From the NCBI RefSeq assembly GCF_050920415.1, contig NZ_CP169309.1: a stretch of DNA of 64,000 bases. The stretch is one strand, 5' to 3'. Position 1 is the first letter of the stretch. Each line of letters starts with the position of its first letter. Below the pieces are notes generated by a model. That model saw only the letters and a list, made by a program, of their open reading frames with translations. It searched no databases and was not told the DNA's origin. Source of the stretch: Escherichia coli (lineage in GTDB: Bacteria > Pseudomonadota > Gammaproteobacteria > Enterobacterales > Enterobacteriaceae). This document shows, piece by piece, positions 4,103-63,986 of the stretch. The position numbers were made by a program, and so were the translations under genes.

Positions 4103-4743
4103 TTATATACGTCCTTTAAGATAAGTCAGTCCTGGATGAAACCAGTAAGCAGGCACTTTTTTAAAGGGTGGATTATCAAAATCACGAAGAAGAGCCTCCC
4201 GCACAACTGCATCCTTGTCCGCACCACTGGCCAGCGCTTCAATCTCAGCAGCTACCTGCAGATATCCCATGCAACGACCAATGCGCTTCATTAGTCCCTG
4301 CTTTTTATTGTTCTTCAGGTAATCAATGGCAAATTCAATGAGCGCCTCACTGTGCTGGTGCGATGCTGGTGTTACTTTTCCATCTTCACGGATCGTGATA
4401 TTCCAGTCATCGCTTGTCACAATAAAAGATGGCCGATTCCCCCCCCATGCCTGGTCTTTATCCGGTGCAGACGCAATAAAATAACGTTTATTGCCTTCCT
4501 CTCCGGCACTTTTAACTGTAATGGAGTACTTTTCTGACAATGCGGTCGGTAAAAACTTTTCCTGCAAAATCTTCTCAAAGGTCCTGCGAGCAATTTTGAT
4601 GCAATCATCGTAAAACGCTGCTTCCTGCTCATCGCGGCGTTTTTTTCATCTTCAGAAACCATCAGCACCGACAGTTTTTTATTCAGTTCAGTGATTTCAT
4701 TTTCCAGGCAACTTATGCGCTGATTCATTTCTTCATGGTTCAT
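4103..4743 (-). pseudogene. Hypothetical protein gene between holin and endolysin, interrupted by a frameshift (ORFs 4417-4743 and 4103-4567)
   Basis: N-terminal ORF (MNHEEMNQRISCLENEITELNKKLSVLMVSEDEK) and C-terminal ORF (...QEKFLPTALSEKYSITVKSAGEE...) join into one plausible protein if the A/T run at 4640-4646 had one more base (EDEKKRRDEQEAAFYDDCIKIARRTFEKILQEKF). Confidence 0.5.
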
Positions 4744-4746
4744 CGT

Positions 4747-4962
4747 CTACTCTCCCCGCGCCGCCTTACGCCGGTCCTCTCTGATTTTGAAATACAGGTT
4801 AGTCAGGTACGTCAGCAGGCCAAACAGCAGACTCCCCAGCACACCTATCGCCACCCACTGGGACGGAGAGACTTTGTCCAGCAGCTGCAGTAACCAGTAT
4901 CCCGTCCCCACCGCTGACGTGGTGTATGACACACCTGTTGTGATTTTTTCCATCTGGTACAT
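4747..4962 (-). CDS. Holin (lambdoid EssD-like, dual-start motif)
   Basis: 71 aa [71 protein letters not shown]; matches remembered DLP12 EssD; Met-x-x-Met dual start. Confidence 0.85.
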
Positions 4963-5264
4963 ACCCCGTCTCCCGTTATCCGGAAACTGACAACAATAAA
5001 AAAGCCACCCGTTAATTACTGATGGCTCTGATGCATAAACGTCATCATTCCTGACCGTTATGATTGACAATGGTTATCATTTTTATATAAAAATACTCCC
5101 GATATGTGTTACATATCATTTCTCCACGGGGAATATCCCCACGCCAGCGTCAGACTCGTTTTCCCGTTCTCTTCTGTGCTGGCGTTTTTTTTATTATGAT
5201 GTCGGTACATTTATCTCCAGCACCAGGCTTTCAATCTCAACACCATACGCGGAATTTTTGGGCG

Positions 5265-5523: not shown

Positions 5524-5688
5524 TTAACTACCTGGCATGTCCTTTTTCACCAAAGGAAAAAGCACCACCACAATACCGACCACCAGCACTCCATCCGCCA
5601 GCACCGACATGATCCTGCTGGTGAAATCCACCATCACCACCAGAAACAGCAGGAGTGCCACAGCGGCCAGACGCAGTTTTACCGTCAC
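5524..5688 (-). CDS. Small hydrophobic membrane protein (54 aa), translationally coupled to TerB-like gene
   Basis: GTG start overlapping the TerB-like TGA stop (GTGA); GGAGAA RBS; product VTVKLRLAAVALLLFLVVMVDFTSRIMSVLADGVLVVGIVVVLFPLVKKDMPGS is almost wholly hydrophobic; below the ORF-track length cut-off. Confidence 0.4.
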   Translation of the reverse strand: MTVKLRLAAVALLLFLVVMVDFTSRIMSVLADGVLVVGIVVVLFPLVKKDMPGS

Positions 5689-6116
5689 AGGTGGTTCTCC
5701 AGTCGCAGGCCAAGAACACCAGCAATCTCTTCCAGAACCTTACGCTCTTCCGGCTCAATTTCACCATCTGCTTCAGCAATGGCCACCGCCACATCCAGCA
5801 CATCTTCCGCTTCACGCGTATCGTGTTTCACATCTTCAATTTCACGCAACGCTGCACGACGACCAATTTTAAAATTGGTGTCAAGCTGACCTGTGATCGT
5901 GGCACTGATGGCATTAATTTCTGACGTAAACGTGGACAACGCTGGCTGGTTACGTAATACCTGTTCGATCTTCGCTTTCTCTGAAGTCTCACATTCACCA
6001 TCTGCATAGGCCACTAGGTAGGCAGCATTAATAACCGCCTGTGCCAGATCGCGTTTCTCAAACTTTTTAATTTCAGTTGCTGCTCTGCGGGTTTTCTTTT
6101 TGAAAATACCAAACAT
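5685..6116 (-). CDS. TerB-like (tellurite-resistance TerB domain) protein
   Basis: 143 aa with paired acidic helices typical of TerB (LAQAVINAAYLVAYADGECETSEKAKIEQVL ... VLDVAVAIAEADGEIEPEERKVLEEIAGVLGL). Confidence 0.7.
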   Translation of the reverse strand: MFGIFKKKTRRAATEIKKFEKRDLAQAVINAAYLVAYADGECETSEKAKIEQVLRNQPALSTFTSEINAISATITGQLDTNFKIGRRAALREIEDVKHDTREAEDVLDVAVAIAEADGEIEPEERKVLEEIAGVLGLRLENHL

Positions 6117-6289
6117 CGTGACTTTTCCTTTTAGTGGGTGAGCCTGCGCCCTGCGGGGACCAGCCCACAGAGAAAGTCACACTGACCATCCCGTAAGCTC
6201 CCCCCTGAAAAGCTCTGTGGTTTTTGATATACGCCGGGCGTGGCGCGGATACAAAAAAGGCCCGCAAAAGCGAGCCAGGAAAATAAGTA

Positions 6290-6366
6290 TGGCGCGTTGT
6301 ACTGGATTCGAACCAGTGACCGATTGCTTAGAAGGCAATTGCTCTGTCCGACTGAGCTAACAACGC
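6290..6366 (-). tRNA. tRNA-Arg (anticodon UCU), phage-encoded
   Basis: Minus strand GCGTTGTTAGCTCAGTCGGACAGAGCAATTGCCTTCTAAGCAATCGGTCACTGGTTCGAATCCAGTACAACGCGCCA folds as a canonical cloverleaf with anticodon loop CTTCTAA. Confidence 0.85.
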
Positions 6367-6379
6367 ATGATGCAGATAA

Positions 6380-6460
6380 TGGACCGCCATCGAGGACTCG
6401 AACCCCGCACCAACAACCCTGTTATCGTGTCGTCTGCTCTTCCTGATGAGCTAATGGCGG
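6380..6460 (-). tRNA. Atypical tRNA-like gene (acceptor, D and T arms present; anticodon arm does not fold canonically; possibly degenerate)
   Basis: Minus strand CCGCCATTAGCTCATCAGGAAGAGCAGACGACACGATAACAGGGTTGTTGGTGCGGGGTTCGAGTCCTCGATGGCGGTCCA: acceptor pairing, GCTC/GAGC D stem, GTTCGAGTC T arm and CCA end, but 27 nt between D and T stems. Confidence 0.45.
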
Positions 6461-6467
6461 TACGTTA

Positions 6468-6542
6468 TGGTGGCCCTGCTGGATTTGAACCAGCGACCTG
6501 GCGATTATGAGTCGCTCACTCTCACCACTGAGCTAAAGGGCC
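6468..6542 (-). tRNA. tRNA with CAU anticodon (resembles E. coli tRNA-Ile2, lysidine type; could be Met type)
   Basis: Minus strand GGCCCTTTAGCTCAGTGGTGAGAGTGAGCGACTCATAATCGCCAGGTCGCTGGTTCAAATCCAGCAGGGCCACCA; anticodon loop CTCATAA; acceptor stem one pair short of canonical. Confidence 0.8.
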
Positions 6543-6582
6543 GGGCGCAGGATAATAACGGTACGTAACTAATTCTGCAATA

Positions 6583-7641
6583 TCATCCGTTCTGACTGAC
6601 TAAATCCTGAACTTCCTTGACCGTCTGCTCAAAACGCTCAGTCTCCAGCTCAACGCCAATTGCACGACGTCCCAGCGCCATCGATGCTTTGACCGTCGAA
6701 CCCGACCCCATGAAAAAATCTGCAACCAGATCTCCCGGACGACTGCTTGCGCTGATTATCTGCTGCAACATTTCTGCCGGTTTTTCGCACGGATGTTTCC
6801 CGGGATAGTACTGCACCGGTTTATGCATCCACACATCGGTGTACGGCACCTGCACAGTCACACCGAAATACCGCCGCAAATTTTTATATTCTCTCAGCAG
6901 TTCCGTATACTGCCGGTTCAGTTCACTGTATGTGCTGACCAGCTGGTGGTGTGGCTGCTCCAGTTCACCGCGCTGATGTTTTTCTGCTGCAACACGCGCA
7001 AACAACGCCTGCAATTTGTTGTAATCAGCTTCGTTCGGTAACTGCCACTGACTGGTACCAAACCAGTGCGAAGCCATGTTTTTCTTTCCGGTGGCTTCCG
7101 CTATCTGTTTTGACGTTATTCCCAGTTCGGCACGAGCATCCCTGAAATACGATATCAGCGGTGCCATTATGTGCTGTTTGAGTTCCCTTTCTTTTGCCGC
7201 ATAGCCGTCACTTTTGCCGCGATATGGCCCCTGGTAATGTTCAGCAAACAGAACGCGCTCTGTGGCAGGAAAATATGCGCGCAGACTTTCTTTATTACAC
7301 CCATTCCAACGTCCGGACGGCTTCGCCCAGATGATATGGTTAAGCACGTTGAAACGTTCACGCATCATGATCTCAATATCAGATGCCAGGCGATGCCCAC
7401 AGAACAGGTAAAGGCTTCCGGCAGGTTTCAACACCCGCCAGAACTGGGCCAGACAGTGGTCCAGCCACTTAAGATAATCTTCGTCCCCTTTCCACTGATT
7501 GTCCCAACCGTTGGGTTTCACCTTGAAGTAAGGCGGATCGGTAACAATCAGGTCAATGGAATCATCAGGCAGGGACTGAATAAAATGCAGGCAATCAGCG
7601 TTGATTAAATCAACACTGTTTATTTTTACAGTATTTTTCAT
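6583..7641 (-). CDS. DNA methyltransferase (N6-adenine or N4-cytosine, DPPY motif), no adjacent restriction enzyme
   Basis: 352 aa with IVTDPPYF catalytic motif and C-terminal AdoMet motif DLVADFFMGSGST. Confidence 0.85.
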   Translation of the reverse strand: MKNTVKINSVDLINADCLHFIQSLPDDSIDLIVTDPPYFKVKPNGWDNQWKGDEDYLKWLDHCLAQFWRVLKPAGSLYLFCGHRLASDIEIMMRERFNVLNHIIWAKPSGRWNGCNKESLRAYFPATERVLFAEHYQGPYRGKSDGYAAKERELKQHIMAPLISYFRDARAELGITSKQIAEATGKKNMASHWFGTSQWQLPNEADYNKLQALFARVAAEKHQRGELEQPHHQLVSTYSELNRQYTELLREYKNLRRYFGVTVQVPYTDVWMHKPVQYYPGKHPCEKPAEMLQQIISASSRPGDLVADFFMGSGSTVKASMALGRRAIGVELETERFEQTVKEVQDLVSQNG

Positions 7642-7791
7642 GGATCAGTAAGCGTAACTCTGGTAGGCTCACTCTGCTTTTGCGCTAAAGCAGTGGGCCG
7701 TGGTTCGCTTGTGACCAGTAAGCATGAGCGAATGGCTGGCAGGTGCTACCAACACCCACCAGCCGCCCATTTTCACAGCAGGAAACCGCCA

Positions 7792-7998
7792 TTACTGGCA
7801 GCGTCTGAATTTATTCCCGTACCCGCCGTTATCCTTCGCCAGACCCGCCAGAACTAACTGAGTCAGTATTAACTGGCACCGGACTTCGCTTACTCCGGTA
7901 GTTCTCGTCATCATGCGTGGCGTTACCCACTTGTCAGCAGGTAAGAAATGAAGGACTGCGGCGGCGGTTTCTGTCATATCTTGCTGTTTTAGCATGTT
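7792..7998 (-). CDS. Hypothetical small protein
   Basis: ORF from ATG (MLKQQDMTETAAAVLHF...) with AAGGGA RBS; function unknown. Confidence 0.4.
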   Translation of the reverse strand, partial: NMLKQQDMTETAAAVLHFLPADKWVTPRMMTRTTGVSEVRCQLILTQLVLAGLAKDNGGYGNKFRRCQ

Positions 7999-8264
7999 TT
8001 TTCCCTTCTGGTTAACATGACATACCAATAACTCTTGTCTAAAAAGCCAGCAAGATAAAAAGTCAGTATTCACGACCACCAGCGTGTTTACTGTACTGCA
8101 CCAAGTTTACAGGTACAAAAAAACCGCTCAGCGGCGGGTTTAAGTTGTGTGGCGAAGTAACCACTCTTAACAGCATATTTGATTTTTTACGATTGTAAAC
8201 GGTTGATTATTCATCTCCAATAAAAATAATTGTGTAGGTATGCCCTTAACAATGGATAAGAAAC

Positions 8265-8711
8265 ATGAATAAAATGACTGTATTATTACTTAGCGCAACT
8301 ATCATTTCAGGTTGTACTTCTTCCGTACCATTGATAAAGAAAACTCAATCAGGAAAACCTGAGGGGGTTTATCAAAATACGACAAAAGATAAAGTCAAAG
8401 ATGCCCTTGTGAATTACTGCAATAGTAGAGGGTTGATAATTTACAACGCGGATAACAGCAGTGTTATATGTGGTAAAGAACTGGAAGGCGGGTCTGCTGT
8501 TTTTGGACAAATGTTAATCGGCAATGCCTATTCAACAACCCCGGTATCAAAAGTCAGATTTACTATCGCTCAAGTTAATAACGATACAAAAGTGTGGGCC
8601 GATATGTGGATGGAAACTCAAATGGCAATGGGGCAAGTACAACAAATGGCTATAACAGACAACGCAAGCAAAAACACTATCCAACAACGTCTTGATGAAT
8701 TAAAACCTTAA
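8265..8711 (+). CDS. Lipoprotein of unknown function (moron antisense to late transcription)
   Basis: 148 aa; signal peptide MNKMTVLLLSATIISGC with lipobox Cys; AT-rich codon usage unlike neighbours. Confidence 0.7.
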   Translation: MNKMTVLLLSATIISGCTSSVPLIKKTQSGKPEGVYQNTTKDKVKDALVNYCNSRGLIIYNADNSSVICGKELEGGSAVFGQMLIGNAYSTTPVSKVRFTIAQVNNDTKVWADMWMETQMAMGQVQQMAITDNASKNTIQQRLDELKP

Positions 8712-8731
8712 GTAAATTAATTAAATAAAAT

Positions 8732-8754
8732 GGGGAGAAATAAATCGACTCCCC
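8732..8754. terminator. Hairpin terminator between Q and lipoprotein gene (candidate tR'-like for minus strand)
   Basis: GGGGAG-11 nt-CTCCCC; on the minus strand it is followed by ATTTTATTT. Confidence 0.5.
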
Positions 8755-8796
8755 ACACATTAAACTGATTCAATTACCCCCTCAATAAGAGATCTT

Positions 8797-9162
8797 CTAA
8801 CGATCCATCTCTAGCTCAATTTCTAACATCATTAACATGCCATCAACTACACCTTCAGCCTTTTGCAATAAACGCCCAACCCAGCAATCAGAACGCCCAT
8901 GTTTACGGGCAAGCGCCATAAACGTCATACCACCTACATAATAATCCACTAATAAATCGTGCAAATCGCTGTTGTTCTTTTTCAGGCGAGCCATGCACCC
9001 ACAAATGATCATCGCGTCATCGTCACAACATTGCGGGCGGGATTTTACTTTTGAAGGGATTAGTCCTTTAAATCCTGCAGCAATAGACGACCAGGTGACA
9101 TCCTCGTGATTATTTGCCACCCATGCCCCCCAACGTTCAAGAACCATTTGAATATCACGCAT
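8797..9162 (-). CDS. Late antitermination protein Q (QuuD-like)
   Basis: [14 protein letters not shown]...[35 protein letters not shown]...ELEMDR; recognised as DLP12 QuuD-type Q with Cys cluster. Confidence 0.85.
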
Positions 9163-9179
9163 CAACTTTCTCCACAAAA

Positions 9180-10169
9180 TCAGGCCAGAACGCCAATTGC
9201 CAGCGCACGATCGATAAAACGAAATATCAGCTCCAGCTGGGAGCCATACTTCTCTTCAAATGCCACGGTATCCGCATGCAGCTCGTCGTGATGCTTTCTG
9301 CACAAAGGCAACACAAAAAGGTCATGCGCTTTTGTTCCCATTCCACCCTGACCGTGACCTATCAGGTGGTGGGGATCATCAGCAGGCTTTCCACAACATG
9401 CACACGGCTGTGTCTTAACCCAGCGCGTGTACTTTTCATTAACCCAGCGGCGACGTTTGGGGCGTAACATAAAAGACTCCGGCGACTCCGGATCCACTTT
9501 CAGCGCCAGCACCTTTTTCGCTTTATCCTGGATGATGCTGGTGGCAGGAACCGAAGGCACAAGGTCACACTCCCGGGTGACAGACGGCACAACAGGCGTC
9601 GGTAATCTCAGTGCCTTACGGGCTGCACTTTCCGGTAAGGCATCCGCCAGGTCATTACGAGCCAGCCACCAGCACAGTTCCGGCATTGTCACAACGTGAC
9701 TATCATCAAAACCGAGATCCCGACGCACGACAGATAACACCCACCGGGCACAGTTATCCGTTGCCATTGATTCCAGCCGTTCCGTGAACTGATCGCGCAG
9801 CTGGTTATCGCAGTGCCAGCACAGACGGATTGCGCCCGGAGCGTGTCGCATTGTGGTCATATTCTCGCTGTGCCAGTCGGAATGAGGCCACTGGCAGCCT
9901 TTTTCACGAAGTAACCAGCTTTCAAGACATTCCACGCCACCAGCACGACGGATTACCGCCTCATTGCGGAACATAGCCCGAACGGCAGGATCATCCGCCA
10001 GCGGTTGTGATGCCGCCGGAACGGCACCACTGGCAAAAGATGAATAACGTTCCGGCTCAGGCTCCAGCAGGACACGCCCCTGCATAAACAGGGGCATCAG
10101 CTCTGAACCGGGTCTGAACAATACGATCCCCATACGTGGGGCAATTTCAGGGGTCAGTAGTGCTCTCAA
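9180..10169 (-). CDS. DUF968 family protein (YdfU-like)
   Basis: 329 aa; C-terminal Cys/His-rich region [43 protein letters not shown] typical of lambdoid nin-region YdfU-like proteins. Confidence 0.75.
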
Positions 10170-12072: not shown

Positions 12073-12395
12073 ACTTTCAGGCCCCTCTCATGTAACCAGT
12101 GGGTTGCACGCAGCCTGGCGTTTTCCTCACCGGCAAGCAGTGAGCGGATAATCCCGACCGCCTCGCTGTCGTCGTCCTTCATCGCAGTATGAAGCGTTAT
12201 CCCCCGGGCCACGCCACGCTTTATCGTGATGACGCCTTTTTTCTCCAGTGCGCGAAGATGCTCCACCGCTGCATTCACTGAACGGTATCCCAGCATGGTT
12301 GCCACCTCCTGATTGGTTGGCGGGAAGCCACGTTCTTTCTGATAAGAAATCAGCATATCCAGCACCTGCTGCTGGCATTGAGTTAACGTCGTCAT
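12069..12395 (-). CDS. LexA N-terminal-like winged-helix DNA-binding protein (no peptidase domain)
   Basis: MTTLTQCQQQVLDMLISYQKERGFPPTNQEVATMLGYRSVNAAVEHLRALEKKGVITIKRGVARGITL parallels the LexA N-terminal domain; ATG overlaps the upstream gene stop (ATGA). Confidence 0.75.
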   Translation of the reverse strand: MTTLTQCQQQVLDMLISYQKERGFPPTNQEVATMLGYRSVNAAVEHLRALEKKGVITIKRGVARGITLHTAMKDDDSEAVGIIRSLLAGEENARLRATHWLHERGLKV

Positions 12396-13044
12396 GCCGC
12401 CATCTCCCTGACCAGTTTTTCCGCCTGCTGGCGAACCTGCGCCAGAAACGCCTCACCACATGCCTCAAGTTCATCGCGCCCGATGTAGCTGATTGCCGGT
12501 CCCTTCCAGGTCTGTCGAAAACAGCAATAGCACCAGCGAAGAAAGCGCCTGTCGGCACCTGCTTCTCATCTTTCGGGATAAACCAGGCAGGCAGTTCAAA
12601 ACCAATACGCCCGCGAATAAAAGCAATATGATCTGCATCTTCCGGCCACCACACTTCGCTGGTGGCAGCTTTGATCAGGAAAACATAGCGCCCGCCTTTA
12701 TCACGCATGGCACTGGCATGTTTCATGATGTAACGCATGCCGGTGATGTATTGCCCCTCATGCTGACTGGCGCGGCTGTATGGGGGATTACCAAAGGCAG
12801 CACCTTTAAGCTCCGCAAGACGTTCTGACCAGTCATGCGCCAGCGCGTTGTCTTCCGCCGTGTAATACGCGGTACATTTGGCGTTATCACCGTCAGTAAA
12901 CAGATCCAGGACAAACGGGCCAAACAGGGTGTTAATTCCCCAGAAAATGTTACCCGGCGTGCGCCACTGATCGCCCACTTCCTTCAGTTCATGGGCTGGT
13001 TTGTTCCGCAGTTCCACCAGCGCCCGGCAATATTTATTACTCAT
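12392..13044 (-). pseudogene. Phage Dam-family N6-adenine DNA methyltransferase with a 1-nt frameshift near 12505-12522
   Basis: N-terminal frame: MSNKYCRALVEL...GAAFGNPPYS...FFAGAIAVFD. C-terminal frame: QTWKGPAISYIGRDELEACGEAFLAQVRQQAEKLVREMAA, ending in TGA overlapping the next ATG. One extra A in the A4 run (about 12518-12521) would join them. The 316-aa ORF-track read-through has an Arg-rich junk tail. Confidence 0.7.
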
Positions 13045-23012: not shown

Positions 23013-24269
23013 TCAAAGTGTGCTAGGAGATTTGGTTATGTTCAGGTGATACAAACCGTCAGTTTGACAATTAACAATCGATTCAACCCTCTTCCACCAT
23101 GCCAGGTAAGCTTTACGCTGTTCTTCTAGATAATCACTCTTATCATAAACTTGCCATACCCCTGGCAGCTTATGACCAAGCATAATTTCTGCGATATGAG
23201 GCGCAGTAAGATCAGAAAAATTTGTTCGAGCTGTACGTCTCAAGTCATGAAGAGACCAATGAGGGAATTGATATCCTAAACACCGCCATGCGTACTGCAT
23301 TAAATTGTAAGGCAGCGACTGCAATGATGTCCGACCAACGGGTTCCCTGCTTCCTTCCTTAGTAAAAAGCATATCGGAACCATTGTTCATAGAGATAGCG
23401 TACTTTATAAGCTCTTCAACCGGTTCAATAATGGGCCGCTTTAGCGGTTCGCCTGTTATCTCCCCAGTCTTATGTCGTTCTGGTGGTACAGTCCATACTT
23501 TATTAATGAAATCAAAATCGTCCACCCGGGCGGTAATTAGCTCTGAACTACGGCAACCAAAATGCAGCAATAGTTTAATGAAGGCCCGGTATTTAGGAAC
23601 CATTCGAGAACCATCGATCGCAGCATAAAGGATTTTAATTTCATCATGTGTCAGAAACCGTTTCTTCTGACCTTTACGGATATCCATATCTTTACCCGTG
23701 ATATCCGACAGCGGGCGAGTTTCAATGAGCTTTCTCTTATACGCCCAGACATGGGCCTGCTTTGCGTTAATTAGCAATCGGTCTGCTATTGCTGGAGTCT
23801 TAGTGCTAAGAGGCTCCAGGACTTCTAACCAATCATGCAATGTAGCTGCATCGTGAGGGATATTCCCGATTTTAGAGAACAGGTGCAGCTCAAACGAGCG
23901 AAGTATCTGTTCAGAACCTTTTTTATTTTTTACACAATATGCTTCATACCAAGCACGGATCACAGACTCTACCGTCATGGCTTCAGTAGCTTTTCGTTTT
24001 TCAGCCTGCTTGACCAATCGTGGATTACGGTTTGACTCGAGTTCACCACGAAGACGGATAACTTCTTCTCTGGCCTCTTTTAATCCAGTTGCCGGGTAAG
24101 TTCCGATATCAAGACGCTCACCTTTCCCTGCCCATTGATAACGATATTGGAACACTACGCGACCTTTCGGTGATACTCTGACAGACAGACCATCACGATC
24201 GGATTTAACCAAAACCTTATCACGTTCCTTTCCAACGACTGAACGCAACCACGCATCAGACAGCGCCAT
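23013..24269 (-). CDS. int: Tyrosine-type phage integrase
   Basis: 418 aa; C-terminal catalytic region with HDLRRT and LGH...Y pattern. Confidence 0.9.
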   Translation of the reverse strand: MALSDAWLRSVVGKERDKVLVKSDRDGLSVRVSPKGRVVFQYRYQWAGKGERLDIGTYPATGLKEAREEVIRLRGELESNRNPRLVKQAEKRKATEAMTVESVIRAWYEAYCVKNKKGSEQILRSFELHLFSKIGNIPHDAATLHDWLEVLEPLSTKTPAIADRLLINAKQAHVWAYKRKLIETRPLSDITGKDMDIRKGQKKRFLTHDEIKILYAAIDGSRMVPKYRAFIKLLLHFGCRSSELITARVDDFDFINKVWTVPPERHKTGEITGEPLKRPIIEPVEELIKYAISMNNGSDMLFTKEGSREPVGRTSLQSLPYNLMQYAWRCLGYQFPHWSLHDLRRTARTNFSDLTAPHIAEIMLGHKLPGVWQVYDKSDYLEEQRKAYLAWWKRVESIVNCQTDGLYHLNITKSPSTL

Positions 24270-62204: not shown

Positions 62205-62507
62205 TTATTTTTTATTCTGATCGCGCAGCATCGCTTCACGTAAAATTGCGTTCAGGCGAGTTTGATAGCCTTTACCTGGTCGCTTCAACCATTCCATCAC
62301 ATCAGCATCAATACGCACCGAAGCCTGAGTTTTCAATGGCCGATAAAACTTACCGCGTTCTGCGTTAGACCATTGCTCATCGCTGGAAGGTGGGATATCA
62401 CTGTAATCAATATCTTCGTCGGATTTATTCGCCAGCGCCTTCAGTTCGGCCTCATGCTGCACATCGAGTGAAGAGGAGGTCCCTCGTTTATGTTTAACCA
62501 TGCTCAT
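62205..62507 (-). CDS. BrnA-like antitoxin (type II TA)
   Basis: 100 aa; C-terminal ...VMEWLKRPGKGYQTRLNAILREAML pattern of BrnA. Confidence 0.6.
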   Translation of the reverse strand: MSMVKHKRGTSSSLDVQHEAELKALANKSDEDIDYSDIPPSSDEQWSNAERGKFYRPLKTQASVRIDADVMEWLKRPGKGYQTRLNAILREAMLRDQNKK

Positions 62508-62632
62508 AGCGGCTCCGTTCGTTGTGGCTCATCAAACACTAACACCGCATCTTCAAAGCGGATGCCATGTTTCACCCGATTACTTTTGGCCTTGTTTGCA
62601 TCCCATTCAAACTCCATTGGCATAGTTGCCAT
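62504..62632 (-). pseudogene. Truncated BrnT-like toxin gene (N-terminal 42 codons only)
   Basis: MATMPMEFEWDANKAKSNRVKHGIRFEDAVLVFDEPQRTEPL then stop overlapping the brnA ATG (ATGA); full-length BrnT is about twice this length. Confidence 0.45.
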
Positions 62633-62819: not shown

Positions 62820-63986
62820 GTGAAAAACTACAAAGTTATTACTCCGCTTTTTCCTACCTATGCGCAAGTTAAGGCTATGATGAAAGCCGTCTCAGGCTAT
62901 TCCCTGAAAGCGGTACGCAATATGATTACCGCCATTCACGAGCAAACCGGTACGCCGCAAAAACCCGTTGACTGGTCGGAACCTGACCTGTGGATCAGCG
63001 AACGCTTAACGGGTGAAGATGCCGACATCGCCCGTCGTATTTGGGATACCGATAATCACATATTGAACCCGCGCCACAGCTACGGCTGCTACTTATTTCT
63101 CAACTATCCTCAGTTTGAGCTGATGGAAAGCACGCCAGATGATACCTGGCAGCCCACCTCGCGCGGGCAAAAATTCCTGCAAGATGACGAAAAAACGCTG
63201 CGTTCACTGGACGACCAGGAAGGCATTCTGCAACTGCTTGAGCTGCTGGCTGGCCGGGAAATGTCGCGCCGCGCCGATTTATTGCCGGAATGGCAGGCCT
63301 TTTTGCATCAGCATTCGAAATTCGCGTCAGCAAGTTCAGTGAAAAGCACGCTCTACTCCCGTCTCTATAACCTTATCGACCGTGACATGGTTAACCGTGA
63401 AGGCATGAGCTATCGCATCACCGATACCGGGCGCGCCTGGCTTGGAAAAGCGTTGCCTGCACGAAAAAGCGATCCGCGTAAAGAGCTGTTGGAAGCGGTA
63501 AAACGCTATAACGAACAGCAAAAAGAGCTGCTGCGCGAACAAATCAGCACGATGAACCCGTACAAATTTGAGCAACTGGTTGGTCAATTACTGGAAGCAA
63601 TGGGCTACGAACAGGTTGAAGTGACCAAAGCCTCAGGCGACAAAGGTGTGGACGTGATTGGTCAGGTGCAGGTCGGCATCACCACTATTACCGAAGTGGT
63701 GCAGGTCAAAAGAATGCTGAACACTATCACTCGCCCGTATATCGACCAGTTGCGTGGGGCGTTGCCTTACCACAAAGCCATTCGCGGTACGCTCATCACC
63801 ACCGGGAAATTTGCGGCGAAATGTGCAGAAGCGGCGCTCTTTCCGGGTGCCGCGCCCATTACGCTTATCGACGGCGATCGTTTACTGGAACTGTTAATCG
63901 AAAATAACGTCGGCATTCGCCGCAGCAATGCAGTGGAATTGCTGGATGTAGATTTGCAGTTGTTTGATGAGCTGGAGATGGATTAA
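62820..63986 (+). CDS. Mrr-type (type IV) restriction endonuclease-like protein with extended N-terminal domain
   Basis: 388 aa; C-terminal Mrr catalytic-like region (FEQLVGQLLEAMGYEQVEVTKASGDKGVDVIGQVQVGITTITEVVQVKR); coordinates from the ORF track. Confidence 0.6.
   Translation: MKNYKVITPLFPTYAQVKAMMKAVSGYSLKAVRNMITAIHEQTGTPQKPVDWSEPDLWISERLTGEDADIARRIWDTDNHILNPRHSYGCYLFLNYPQFELMESTPDDTWQPTSRGQKFLQDDEKTLRSLDDQEGILQLLELLAGREMSRRADLLPEWQAFLHQHSKFASASSVKSTLYSRLYNLIDRDMVNREGMSYRITDTGRAWLGKALPARKSDPRKELLEAVKRYNEQQKELLREQISTMNPYKFEQLVGQLLEAMGYEQVEVTKASGDKGVDVIGQVQVGITTITEVVQVKRMLNTITRPYIDQLRGALPYHKAIRGTLITTGKFAAKCAEAALFPGAAPITLIDGDRLLELLIENNVGIRRSNAVELLDVDLQLFDELEMD

Follow-up and report, generated by a model that had tools for sequence, protein, structure and literature searches.

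Genes and gene order at the locus

We analysed a stretch of 64,000 nucleotides (the window) whose sequence matches E. coli MFDS1022581 (NZ_CP169399.1) at 100% identity; the locus described here lies in a lambdoid prophage of that strain. In the ORF listing of the window, positions 6583..7641 (minus strand) form a single intact ORF that starts with ATG and encodes 352 aa, labelled 'DNA-methyltransferase' in RefSeq (WP_000799665.1). The gene is located between Q and the lysis genes; in its vicinity are a winged-helix ORF, a lipoprotein-like ORF, Q, a DUF968 ORF, tRNAs and TerB. The antiterminator gene Q (8797..9177, minus strand, 126 aa) is identified both by its annotation and by a match to PF06530 (E = 2.1e-51). 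On the 3' side of the methyltransferase gene, a tRNA search, the annotation and Rfam all place a tRNA cluster (6290..6543, minus strand) composed of a tRNA(CAT) annotated as tRNA-Ile (6469-6543), a degenerate 'tRNA-OTHER' (~6380-6460) and tRNA-Arg(TCT) (6290-6366), and sequence inspection reveals a terminator-like hairpin (6259..6276, minus strand) after the cluster. Elsewhere in the prophage, a frameshifted gene for a Dam-type methyltransferase is present in the early (nin) region (window 12392-13044).

The same arrangement, in which Q is followed by a small ORF, the methyltransferase gene and then either holin/lysis genes or tRNAs, is found in phage 1720a-02, which has been named as the carrier of a very similar enzyme (Murray et al., PMC5778455), and it recurs in Klebsiella, Salmonella and Pantoea prophages, where it stands behind three unrelated Q families. 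Neither Pfam nor PADLOC detects a restriction endonuclease domain in the neighbouring ORFs, PADLOC assigns these neighbours to no defence system, and the RefSeq annotation of the whole prophage contains no restriction enzyme; the adjacent matching endonuclease of a type II restriction-modification system is not found. The initial annotation had described a DPPY-motif methyltransferase between Q and the tRNAs, with a small gene nearby and no restriction partner, and all of this is borne out; the small gene is the ORF at 7792-7995.

A beta-class methyltransferase under purifying selection

The sole Pfam match of the protein is to PF01555 (N6_N4_Mtase), which spans residues 29-341 with E = 1.3e-43 and a score of 150 bits against a cut-off of 26.7, well beyond chance; the Dam-family models with alpha-class motif order, PF05869 and PF02086, are not matched. 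The N-terminal part of the protein reads MKNTVKINSVDLINADCL...DLIVTDPPYF, and DFFMGSGST is found close to the C-terminus. The DPPY of motif IV (residues 35-38) therefore precedes the FxGxG of motif I (F-M-G-S-G, residues 310-314), which is the order that defines the beta class. Among 60 homologues, D35, P36, P37, Y38, D308, G312 and G314 are invariant or nearly so.

The AlphaFold2 model (pLDDT 93) has a split Rossmann core and a helical target-recognition region at ~146-255, with helices at residues 146-158, 160-173, 177-184, 190-194, 204-223 and 238-255. Foldseek returned CcrM, M.BceJIV, M.MboIIA, M.RsrI and M1.HpyAVI at a probability of 1.00, and in the first four of these it is the catalytic core only that is matched. 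The model and the Foldseek matches together identify a Rossmann-type methyltransferase fold.

The family is under purifying selection, as dN/dS between the methyltransferase and its homologues is 0.04-0.13. The identical protein occurs on 62 contigs, the host genome has three further places that match the gene, and about one in two complete E. coli genomes carries related genes, with up to eight matching places per genome.

Relationship to M.EcoGII

When the protein was aligned with M.EcoGII, 302/349 residues were identical with 2 gaps over the full length, the recognition region included, giving an identity (~87%) that is good to ~1%, as the reference was a machine-read supplement copy in which at least three misreads are evident (NHH for NHI, TKVP for THKPV and RRR for RR). 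An exact look-up with the hand-corrected M.EcoGII sequence returned no match. About 45 positions differ from M.EcoGII, ~13 of them in the recognition domain. The protein is also 86% identical to the reconstructed ancestor Anc291 and 71% identical to SUPREM, and it has Q at position 179, as in M.EcoGII clade I. The model helices agree with the published M.EcoGII recognition domain, a four-helix helix-turn-helix with limits 160-237 and helical, charged linkers; these linkers are missing in the site-specific enzyme M.PflMI. Judged by its sequence, the protein is a member of the M.EcoGII clade, and Pfam, the identity to M.EcoGII, AlphaFold2 and Foldseek all support the designation of 6583..7641 as an M.EcoGII-family beta-class adenine methyltransferase.

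M.EcoGII and M.EcoGI are non-specific adenine methyltransferases from prophages of E. coli O104:H4 C227-11 (Murray et al. 2018, PMC5778455; EGT69837.1). M.EcoGII methylates any A in double- and single-stranded DNA, RNA and DNA:RNA hybrids (PMC5778455), with an activity on DNA ~90-fold above that on RNA (Table S3), and its modification blocks many restriction enzymes in vitro (PMC5778455). Neither enzyme is expressed in the lysogen, constitutive expression is deleterious and over-expressed M.EcoGII slows growth; its discoverers proposed anti-restriction as the likely role of this prophage family (PMC5778455). Anc291 and SUPREM are largely non-sequence-specific, as judged by nanopore sequencing on RNA, and among site-specific enzymes the nearest to M.EcoGII is M.PflMI, at only 27% identity (PMC11551740). 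For EspM, a natural homologue within the clade, non-specific adenine methylation has been described, and in-vitro activity on DNA was seen for several homologues after purification (bioRxiv 10.1101/2025.08.05.668773). In O111 STEC strains that carry homologues, no additional methylation motif was seen (PMC6602927). By analogy with these close relatives, the enzyme described here would methylate adenines without sequence specificity, be silent in the lysogen and be toxic when made. Our literature searches found no in-vivo evidence of induction-dependent expression or of anti-restriction by the M.EcoGII family.

Promoter- and terminator-like signals upstream

A candidate for the late promoter pR' is present at 8172..8199 (minus strand), where a sigma-70-like TTTACA is separated by a 16 nt spacer from TATGCT; conservation with phage 1720a-02 begins at its -10 region. 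Some 45 nt downstream lies a candidate tR' (8116..8135, minus strand), a terminator-like hairpin followed by a run of seven Ts, GCCGCTGAGCGGT TTTTTTGTAC, whose position is kept in phage 1720a-02 and in the Klebsiella and Pantoea loci while both its loop and its stem differ. A second terminator-like hairpin (7781..7803, minus strand) covers the stop codon of the small ORF and is followed by a T-rich tail; a comparison of variant sequences revealed both-sided changes in 5/6 pairs of its helix 1, and the counterpart in other variants is a strong intrinsic terminator. The promoter and the terminators are consensus matches at this locus rather than mapped signals. Within the small ORF there is also a weak promoter-like site (7937-7910).

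In phages of this kind the late promoter fires constitutively, and in lysogens its transcripts end just downstream (PMC7547250). With a late-promoter-like site and two terminator-like hairpins ahead of it, the methyltransferase gene probably needs antitermination by Q in lytic growth to be expressed. We also considered two known small RNAs as the identity of a short promoter-proximal transcript with CACACAAC. AgvB, an anti-sRNA, was rejected as AgvB and AsxR lie downstream of the moron in convergent orientation and not at pR', and StxS was dropped, the StxS paper giving no sequence for comparison.

A conserved leader and a small winged-helix ORF

The ~130 nt directly 5' of the methyltransferase ATG (7642..7771, minus strand) form a conserved non-coding leader that contains an invariant AATGGGCGG, a long hairpin at 7724-7770, GGTCACAAGCGAACC and the element GGCCCAC...GTGAGCC. 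Its folding z-score is -2.5. No Shine-Dalgarno sequence is evident 5' of the ATG, and a TGATC just before the start codon is predicted to pair with GGTCA. The leader is 84-88% identical to its Klebsiella, Salmonella and Pantoea counterparts, whereas the methyltransferase genes of these copies share only 70-75% identity and are saturated at synonymous sites; the leader is thus under stronger nucleotide constraint than the gene behind it. A hidden coding ORF (MGGWWVL...) does not account for this, as its frame is broken by one-nucleotide indels between variants. Within 6100-8900, Rfam gave no family at E <= 1 other than the tRNAs and matches at chance level. We also searched one genome per species with a degenerate leader pattern: most matches arose by chance in GC-rich genomes, and only 8 of 120 are real, every one of them abutting a methyltransferase start codon. 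Locus L092 was left out, being an assembly of bisulfite-converted reads in which all C are read as T.

Upstream of the leader, the small ORF (7792..7995, minus strand; PHROG 331) encodes a predicted minimal winged-helix protein of 67 aa. Its AlphaFold2 model (pLDDT 88) has the order helix-helix-helix-strand-strand, and the best fold match is a Zalpha winged helix with a TM of 0.83 and a weak E-value of 1.6e-3. The ORF lies upstream of the methyltransferase gene in 58/58 viral loci that have enough flanking sequence; in one relative, L090, the leader is present and the small ORF is absent. Neither the leader nor the small ORF nor the terminators are disrupted at the present locus.

With no visible ribosome-binding site and a leader that is predicted to fold, translation of the methyltransferase may need an extra factor, and the leader itself may represent a means, not described so far, of controlling a toxic enzyme. 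More tentatively, and in parallel to com/mom of phage Mu, the winged-helix protein, the terminator-like hairpin and the folded leader could together make up an undescribed switch that holds the methyltransferase off until late lytic growth, possibly by acting on read-through, on RNA processing or on translation.

Discussion

With its family membership, architecture, gene order, lack of a restriction partner and purifying selection established, the reading that we favour, and consider likely, is that the gene encodes a non-specific methyltransferase of the M.EcoGII clade that is expressed late in a Q-dependent manner and protects progeny DNA from restriction. In the lysogen, transcription should stop short of the gene, given its position behind two terminator-like hairpins. 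Upon induction, RNA polymerase modified by Q would read through these terminators, so that the methyltransferase, as the second ORF of a late operon that follows the Q gene, the late-promoter-like site and both hairpins, would be made alongside the lysis and head proteins. It would then transfer methyl groups from S-adenosylmethionine to the N6 of adenines in essentially any sequence context, leaving replicating and packaged phage DNA heavily m6A-methylated, and in the next host such DNA would withstand the many restriction enzymes of types I, II and III that adenine methylation blocks. We infer both the dependence on Q and anti-restriction as the selected function; the latter is presented in the literature as a likely role, also for M.EcoGII. 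It agrees with the part of the initial annotation that proposed protection of phage DNA, which gains support from the ~87% identity to M.EcoGII and the block of restriction in vitro.

A rather improbable alternative is that the gene is a relic, in which case the prophage would be decaying, the enzyme would never be made in useful amounts and the ORF would be intact only through the short time elapsed. In the annotation of the same prophage, frameshifts affect the portal gene, a lysis gene, the Dam-type methyltransferase gene and one more late ORF, and particle production in MFDS1022581 may be lost; with three more matching places in the genome, this copy may also be redundant. However, the ORF is full length and retains every nearly invariant residue of the family, the exact protein is present on 62 contigs, the family evolves under purifying selection, and the leader, small ORF and terminators are undamaged. 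Moreover, even a defective prophage can switch on its late genes when induced, and the DNA of co-resident phages could then be methylated in trans. This alternative bears on the present usefulness of the gene only and leaves its identity unaffected.

It is less probable still that the enzyme is made late and was selected for a role other than the evasion of classical restriction, such as RNA methylation, host shut-off by hypermethylation of the chromosome, a replication or packaging mark, or BREX-type 'self' mimicry. The action of M.EcoGII on single-stranded DNA, RNA and DNA:RNA hybrids and the slower growth upon its over-expression would fit some such role, as would the adenine methylation that phage P1 requires at its pac site for packaging, and that a winged-helix protein and a conserved leader are so closely tied to the methyltransferase is a hint that the biology is more intricate. 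Yet we found no evidence for any of these candidate roles, the ~90-fold preference of M.EcoGII is for DNA over RNA, and it is the block of many restriction enzymes by the modification that has been demonstrated in vitro.

[quoted passage not shown]

Returning to the favoured reading of a non-specific enzyme made late, little changes at the level of the methyltransferase itself: publications of 2012-2018 already covered the family, its lack of specificity, its location in prophages and its lack of expression in lysogens, and M.EcoGII is a commercial reagent for chromatin footprinting. There is a lesson for annotation, in that genes of this kind named 'site-specific DNA-methyltransferase' should yield no motif in lysogen methylomes, and inactivity cannot be concluded from a 'missing motif'. 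The proposal to compare the methylomes of the lysogen and a cured strain for a target motif is mis-aimed for the M.EcoGII family, because an enzyme without sequence specificity that is off in lysogens is expected to leave none; a negative result would refute nothing. The winged-helix ORF that accompanies the gene and its strongly conserved leader, on the other hand, offer a concrete handle on when and how the enzyme is switched on, how the host survives it and whether it confers anti-restriction.

Comparison with known systems

The closest likeness is to M.EcoGII (~87% identity over the full length) and M.EcoGI, with which the protein shares beta-class motif order and a predicted Rossmann core with a helical helix-turn-helix recognition domain and charged linkers; these too are prophage-borne orphan genes, and the neighbourhood is that of the phage 1720a-02 homologue. 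M.EcoGII has 349 residues, in contrast to the 352 found here, and the C-terminal tail of the present protein differs (…DLVSQNG). The ~45 substitutions are spread over all of its domains, and its activity, specificity and expression are assigned by analogy. Anc291, SUPREM and EspM, all reported as largely non-sequence-specific, bracket the present protein, although Anc291 and SUPREM are designed ancestors rather than natural genes; as the relative activities on RNA and DNA differ among the ancestors, quantitative properties are not transferable to it.

The sequence-specific beta-class enzymes CcrM, YhdJ (ATGCAT), M.BceJIV, M.RsrI, M.MboIIA and M.PflMI have the catalytic core and its motifs in common with the protein. 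Foldseek E-values for such enzymes range from 1e-17 to 1e-15, and the phmmer matches consist of two separate stretches, one for the N-terminal and one for the C-terminal half of the core. Identity is only 17-23%, however, the central region of the present protein (~116-280) has no counterpart in these enzymes, and the CcrM and YhdJ equivalog models are not reached. The phage Dam-type orphans (PF05869 and PF02086; M.EcoVT2Dam and the gene at 12392-13044) are likewise prophage-borne orphan adenine methyltransferases, but they belong to another family, are GATC-specific and lie in the early (nin) region.

The mom gene of phage Mu is a toxic DNA-modification gene that is silent in the lysogen, and its translation needs Com, a small protein encoded upstream that binds a hairpin in the mRNA. 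A parallel between Mom and M.EcoGII has been drawn (PMC12707154). There is no kinship of sequence or fold between the two systems, the small protein here being a winged helix and Com a zinc finger, and the L090 locus has the leader without the small ORF. By analogy, nevertheless, both would pair a late, toxic, broad-spectrum anti-restriction modifier with a small ORF directly 5' of it and a conserved, folded leader over its start.

Prophage context and identity of the methyltransferase

The window matches E. coli MFDS1022581 chromosome NZ_CP169399.1 at 100% identity (window coordinate = NZ_CP169399.1 coordinate minus 4,451,831). Its positions 1 to ~24,300 are part of a lambdoid prophage, which continues past the left window edge and ends in a tyrosine integrase (23013-24269) adjoining yjjG. 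On the minus strand, genes for a DUF968 protein (9180-10169) and the antiterminator Q (8797-9177; PF06530, 2e-51) are followed by a small ORF (7792-7995), the methyltransferase ORF (6583-7641), a tRNA(CAT) annotated as tRNA-Ile (6469-6543), a probable degenerate tRNA (~6380-6460; 'tRNA-OTHER' in RefSeq), tRNA-Arg(TCT) (6290-6366), a TerB-family gene (5685-6116) and a class II holin (4747-5070). The coordinates, DPPY motif, Q-to-tRNA placement and single small neighbour described in the initial annotation were all borne out by ORF and tRNA calls, Pfam and the database annotation. The interval at ~6380-6460 between the two tRNA genes drew no ARAGORN call and only chance-level Rfam matches, and the trio is reminiscent of ileZ-argN-argO in Stx phages. 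Downstream of the tRNAs, the TerB-family gene and a DUF3927 gene (5524-5688, minus strand) occupy the moron site that holds stx in Stx phages.

Several genes are annotated as frameshifted: the portal gene (left of the window), a lysis gene and a hypothetical late ORF (2172-2638 and 4103-4743, minus strand), and a second methyltransferase gene, of Dam type, in the early region (12392-13044, minus strand; PF05869, 6e-42). The prophage in MFDS1022581 is therefore probably defective. The cassette of small ORF, hairpin, leader and methyltransferase is intact in the same prophage.

The 352-aa methyltransferase matches PF01555 (N6_N4_Mtase; 1.3e-43), with DPPY at residues 35-38 and FxGxG at 310-314, the beta-class order. 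It falls far short of the NCBIfam cut-offs for two sequence-specific orphans, YhdJ (112 vs 292) and CcrM (69 vs 830). Its relatives are instead the non-specific enzymes: 302 of 349 residues (87%) are identical to M.EcoGII as printed in the supplement of the SUPREM paper, a figure good to about 1% as that sequence was machine-read with at least three misreads, and identity is 86% to Anc291 and 71% to SUPREM, two reconstructed ancestors of the clade. The ~45 differences from M.EcoGII lie across all domains, ~13 of them within the recognition domain. The phage 1720a-02 homologue is 85% identical at the nucleotide and 86% at the protein level.

M.EcoGII, a 349-aa beta-class enzyme described by Murray et al. 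2018 (PMC5778455), is carried by an E. coli O104:H4 C227-11 prophage. [quoted passage not shown] The enzyme is unexpressed in its native lysogen, is deleterious when expressed constitutively, and was placed in 'a very large family' of E. coli prophages that includes phage 1720a-02 (PMC5778455). A methylome paper on O111 STEC likewise gave the predicted specificity of prophage homologues of M.EcoGI and M.EcoGII as 'nonspecific'. Several purified homologues of the clade are active on DNA in vitro. Since the closest site-specific enzyme, M.PflMI, is only 27% identical to M.EcoGII, the reconstructed ancestors are still largely non-sequence-specific, and the natural homologue EspM has been reported as a non-specific adenine methyltransferase, the whole M.EcoGII clade appears to lack specificity. 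Judged by its sequence, the gene is an already known, ordinary M.EcoGII-type enzyme, and the source label of the exact protein, 'site-specific DNA-methyltransferase', is an automatic one that is misleading for this clade.

In a sequence search, matches to solved structures (M.BceJIV, M.RsrI, CcrM, M.MboIIA and M1.HpyAVI) were restricted to the two halves of the catalytic core, residues 9-115 and 281-343, and no solved relative was found for the central 160 residues. An AlphaFold2 model built from 60 homologues (34-90% identity; pLDDT 93, pTM 0.87) predicts a split Rossmann core with a helical insert (helices 146-158, 160-173, 177-184, 190-194, 204-223 and 238-255), and Foldseek matched the model to beta-class enzyme cores only. 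In the published M.EcoGII model, residues 1-134 and 260-349 form the core and residues 160-237 a recognition domain of four helices with a helix-turn-helix, and there are charged, helical linkers, which M.PflMI does not have; the predicted core, helical recognition insert and linkers of our model agree with it.

At E <= 1e-10, 3,064 proteins of a 90%-clustered collection match, from Escherichia, Shigella, Citrobacter, Klebsiella, Salmonella, Enterobacter, Cronobacter, Pantoea, Erwinia and other genera; with clustering at 50% identity, 304 representatives match at E <= 1e-30. Gene-related DNA is present in 2,699 of 5,426 complete E. coli genomes, at up to eight places per genome (four in MFDS1022581), and the exact protein is found on 62 contigs. 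Values of dN/dS against homologues are 0.04-0.13. In one compared locus (L092, SRR8137545 assembly), all C positions of the displayed strand appear as T, as in bisulfite-converted reads, so that its 'protein' (P0127, 61% identity) is an artefact of the protein library; the locus was left out.

Expression context

A promoter-like site (TTTACA, 16 nt spacer, TATGCT; 8199-8172, minus strand) lies 600 bp downstream of Q, with a hairpin and T7 run (8135-8116, minus strand) ~45 nt past it. Between Q and this site is an opposite-strand, lipoprotein-like ORF (8265-8711, plus strand, 148 aa; signal ...IISGC, PHROG 3152, no Pfam match) with its own promoter-like site (8246-8275); a Salmonella relative has HicAB in the same spot. 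Conservation with phage 1720a-02 starts at the -10 region, and the hairpin persists in phage 1720a-02 as well as in the loci of Klebsiella and Pantoea, with differing letters in stem and loop. The layout fits a late promoter directly 5' of the small ORF. In phages of this kind, the late promoters are constitutively active, but in lysogens transcription ends right after them (PMC7547250).

A second hairpin (7803-7786, within the element at 7781-7803, minus strand) overlaps the small ORF's stop codon, with a T-rich tail behind it. Five of its six pairs show compensatory changes among 14 variants, and it is a strong intrinsic terminator in several variants and a weak one in the window. With these hairpins, two terminator-like elements precede the methyltransferase, downstream of which are the tRNAs, moron and lysis genes. 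The order Q, small ORF, methyltransferase, holin-lysis recurs with Q genes from three families unrelated to one another (PF06530, PF06323 and PF03589). In the lysogen, transcription would stop at the terminator-like elements, leaving the methyltransferase off, and Q-modified polymerase would read through and turn it on. As read from the sequence, such a layout is expected where a gene stays off in the lysogen and is switched on solely by Q read-through, and it would match the silence of M.EcoGI and M.EcoGII.

Restriction partner and role

No restriction enzyme or defence-system component was found among the neighbouring ORFs by Pfam and PADLOC, and no restriction enzyme in the annotation of the whole prophage. 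Of the two roles initially proposed for this orphan, protection from restriction is the best supported, given that M.EcoGII blocks adenine-sensitive restriction enzymes in vitro. A part in host gene regulation in the lysogen is unsupported: M.EcoGI and M.EcoGII are silent in lysogens, and the gene sits behind two terminator-like elements. As neither a motif nor expression in the lysogen is to be expected, a negative lysogen methylome is likely even for a fully functional enzyme, so the lack of a prophage-dependent motif, offered as a refutation in the initial annotation, is not a valid one.

Elsewhere in the window, beside yjiA and a BrnA/truncated BrnT pair (~62205-62623), a host gene (62820-63986, plus strand) encodes a 388-aa Mrr_cat nuclease-domain protein (PF04471) with PADLOC matches to PDC-S02 and type IV methyl-directed enzyme models. 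In principle, an Mrr_cat-type enzyme could attack heavily m6A-methylated DNA.

A conserved leader and small ORF

The methyltransferase ATG is separated from the second hairpin by a 130-nt leader (7771-7642, minus strand), which is more conserved across genera than the methyltransferase gene: the window copy is 84-88% identical to those of Klebsiella, Salmonella and Pantoea, whereas the methyltransferase genes of the same copies are only 70-75% identical, with synonymous sites saturated. The leader also occurs at the homologous loci L002, L004, L006, L008, L090, L101, L110, L116, L119, L144 and L205, and in a one-genome-per-species scan all eight genuine matches to its pattern abut a methyltransferase start codon. 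One-nucleotide indels among variants rule out a coding explanation.

Several features point to RNA. A long hairpin (7770-7724) has G.U pairs on the sense strand only and shows compensatory changes in a relative with a 63%-identical methyltransferase (GGCTGG/CCAGCC vs GGCAGA/TCTGCC). Outside the hairpin over the small ORF's stop codon, covariation is modest, as most columns are invariant. Relative to shuffled sequences, the fold of the sense strand has z = -2.5 and that of the antisense strand z = -1.7. The stretch just before the ATG lacks a visible Shine-Dalgarno sequence, and pairing of its bases with a GGTCA farther 5' is predicted. The leader matched no Rfam family; it is probably a cis-regulatory RNA.

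In each of the 58 viral loci with sufficient flanking sequence, the small ORF lies upstream of the methyltransferase. Its products are 63-69 aa long (67 aa in the window, PHROG 331) and fall into two allelic classes sharing the invariant CQLILTQL and AGL. AlphaFold2 predicts a minimal winged helix (pLDDT 88), whose closest fold is the Zalpha domain (TM 0.83, rmsd 1.1-1.3 Å), with a weak E-value (1.6e-3) and no evident Zalpha contact residues.

Possibly, the leader RNA works with this winged-helix protein. We suggest only tentatively that the methyltransferase is the cargo of a conserved control cassette forming an undescribed switch; the cassette is the sole part of the locus that might be new. 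Control of a toxic DNA-modification enzyme has an analogue in com/mom of phage Mu, and by that analogy the leader, with the winged-helix protein, would control the toxic methyltransferase. One relative (L090) has the leader without the small ORF. A parallel between Mom and M.EcoGII themselves has been drawn (PMC12707154).
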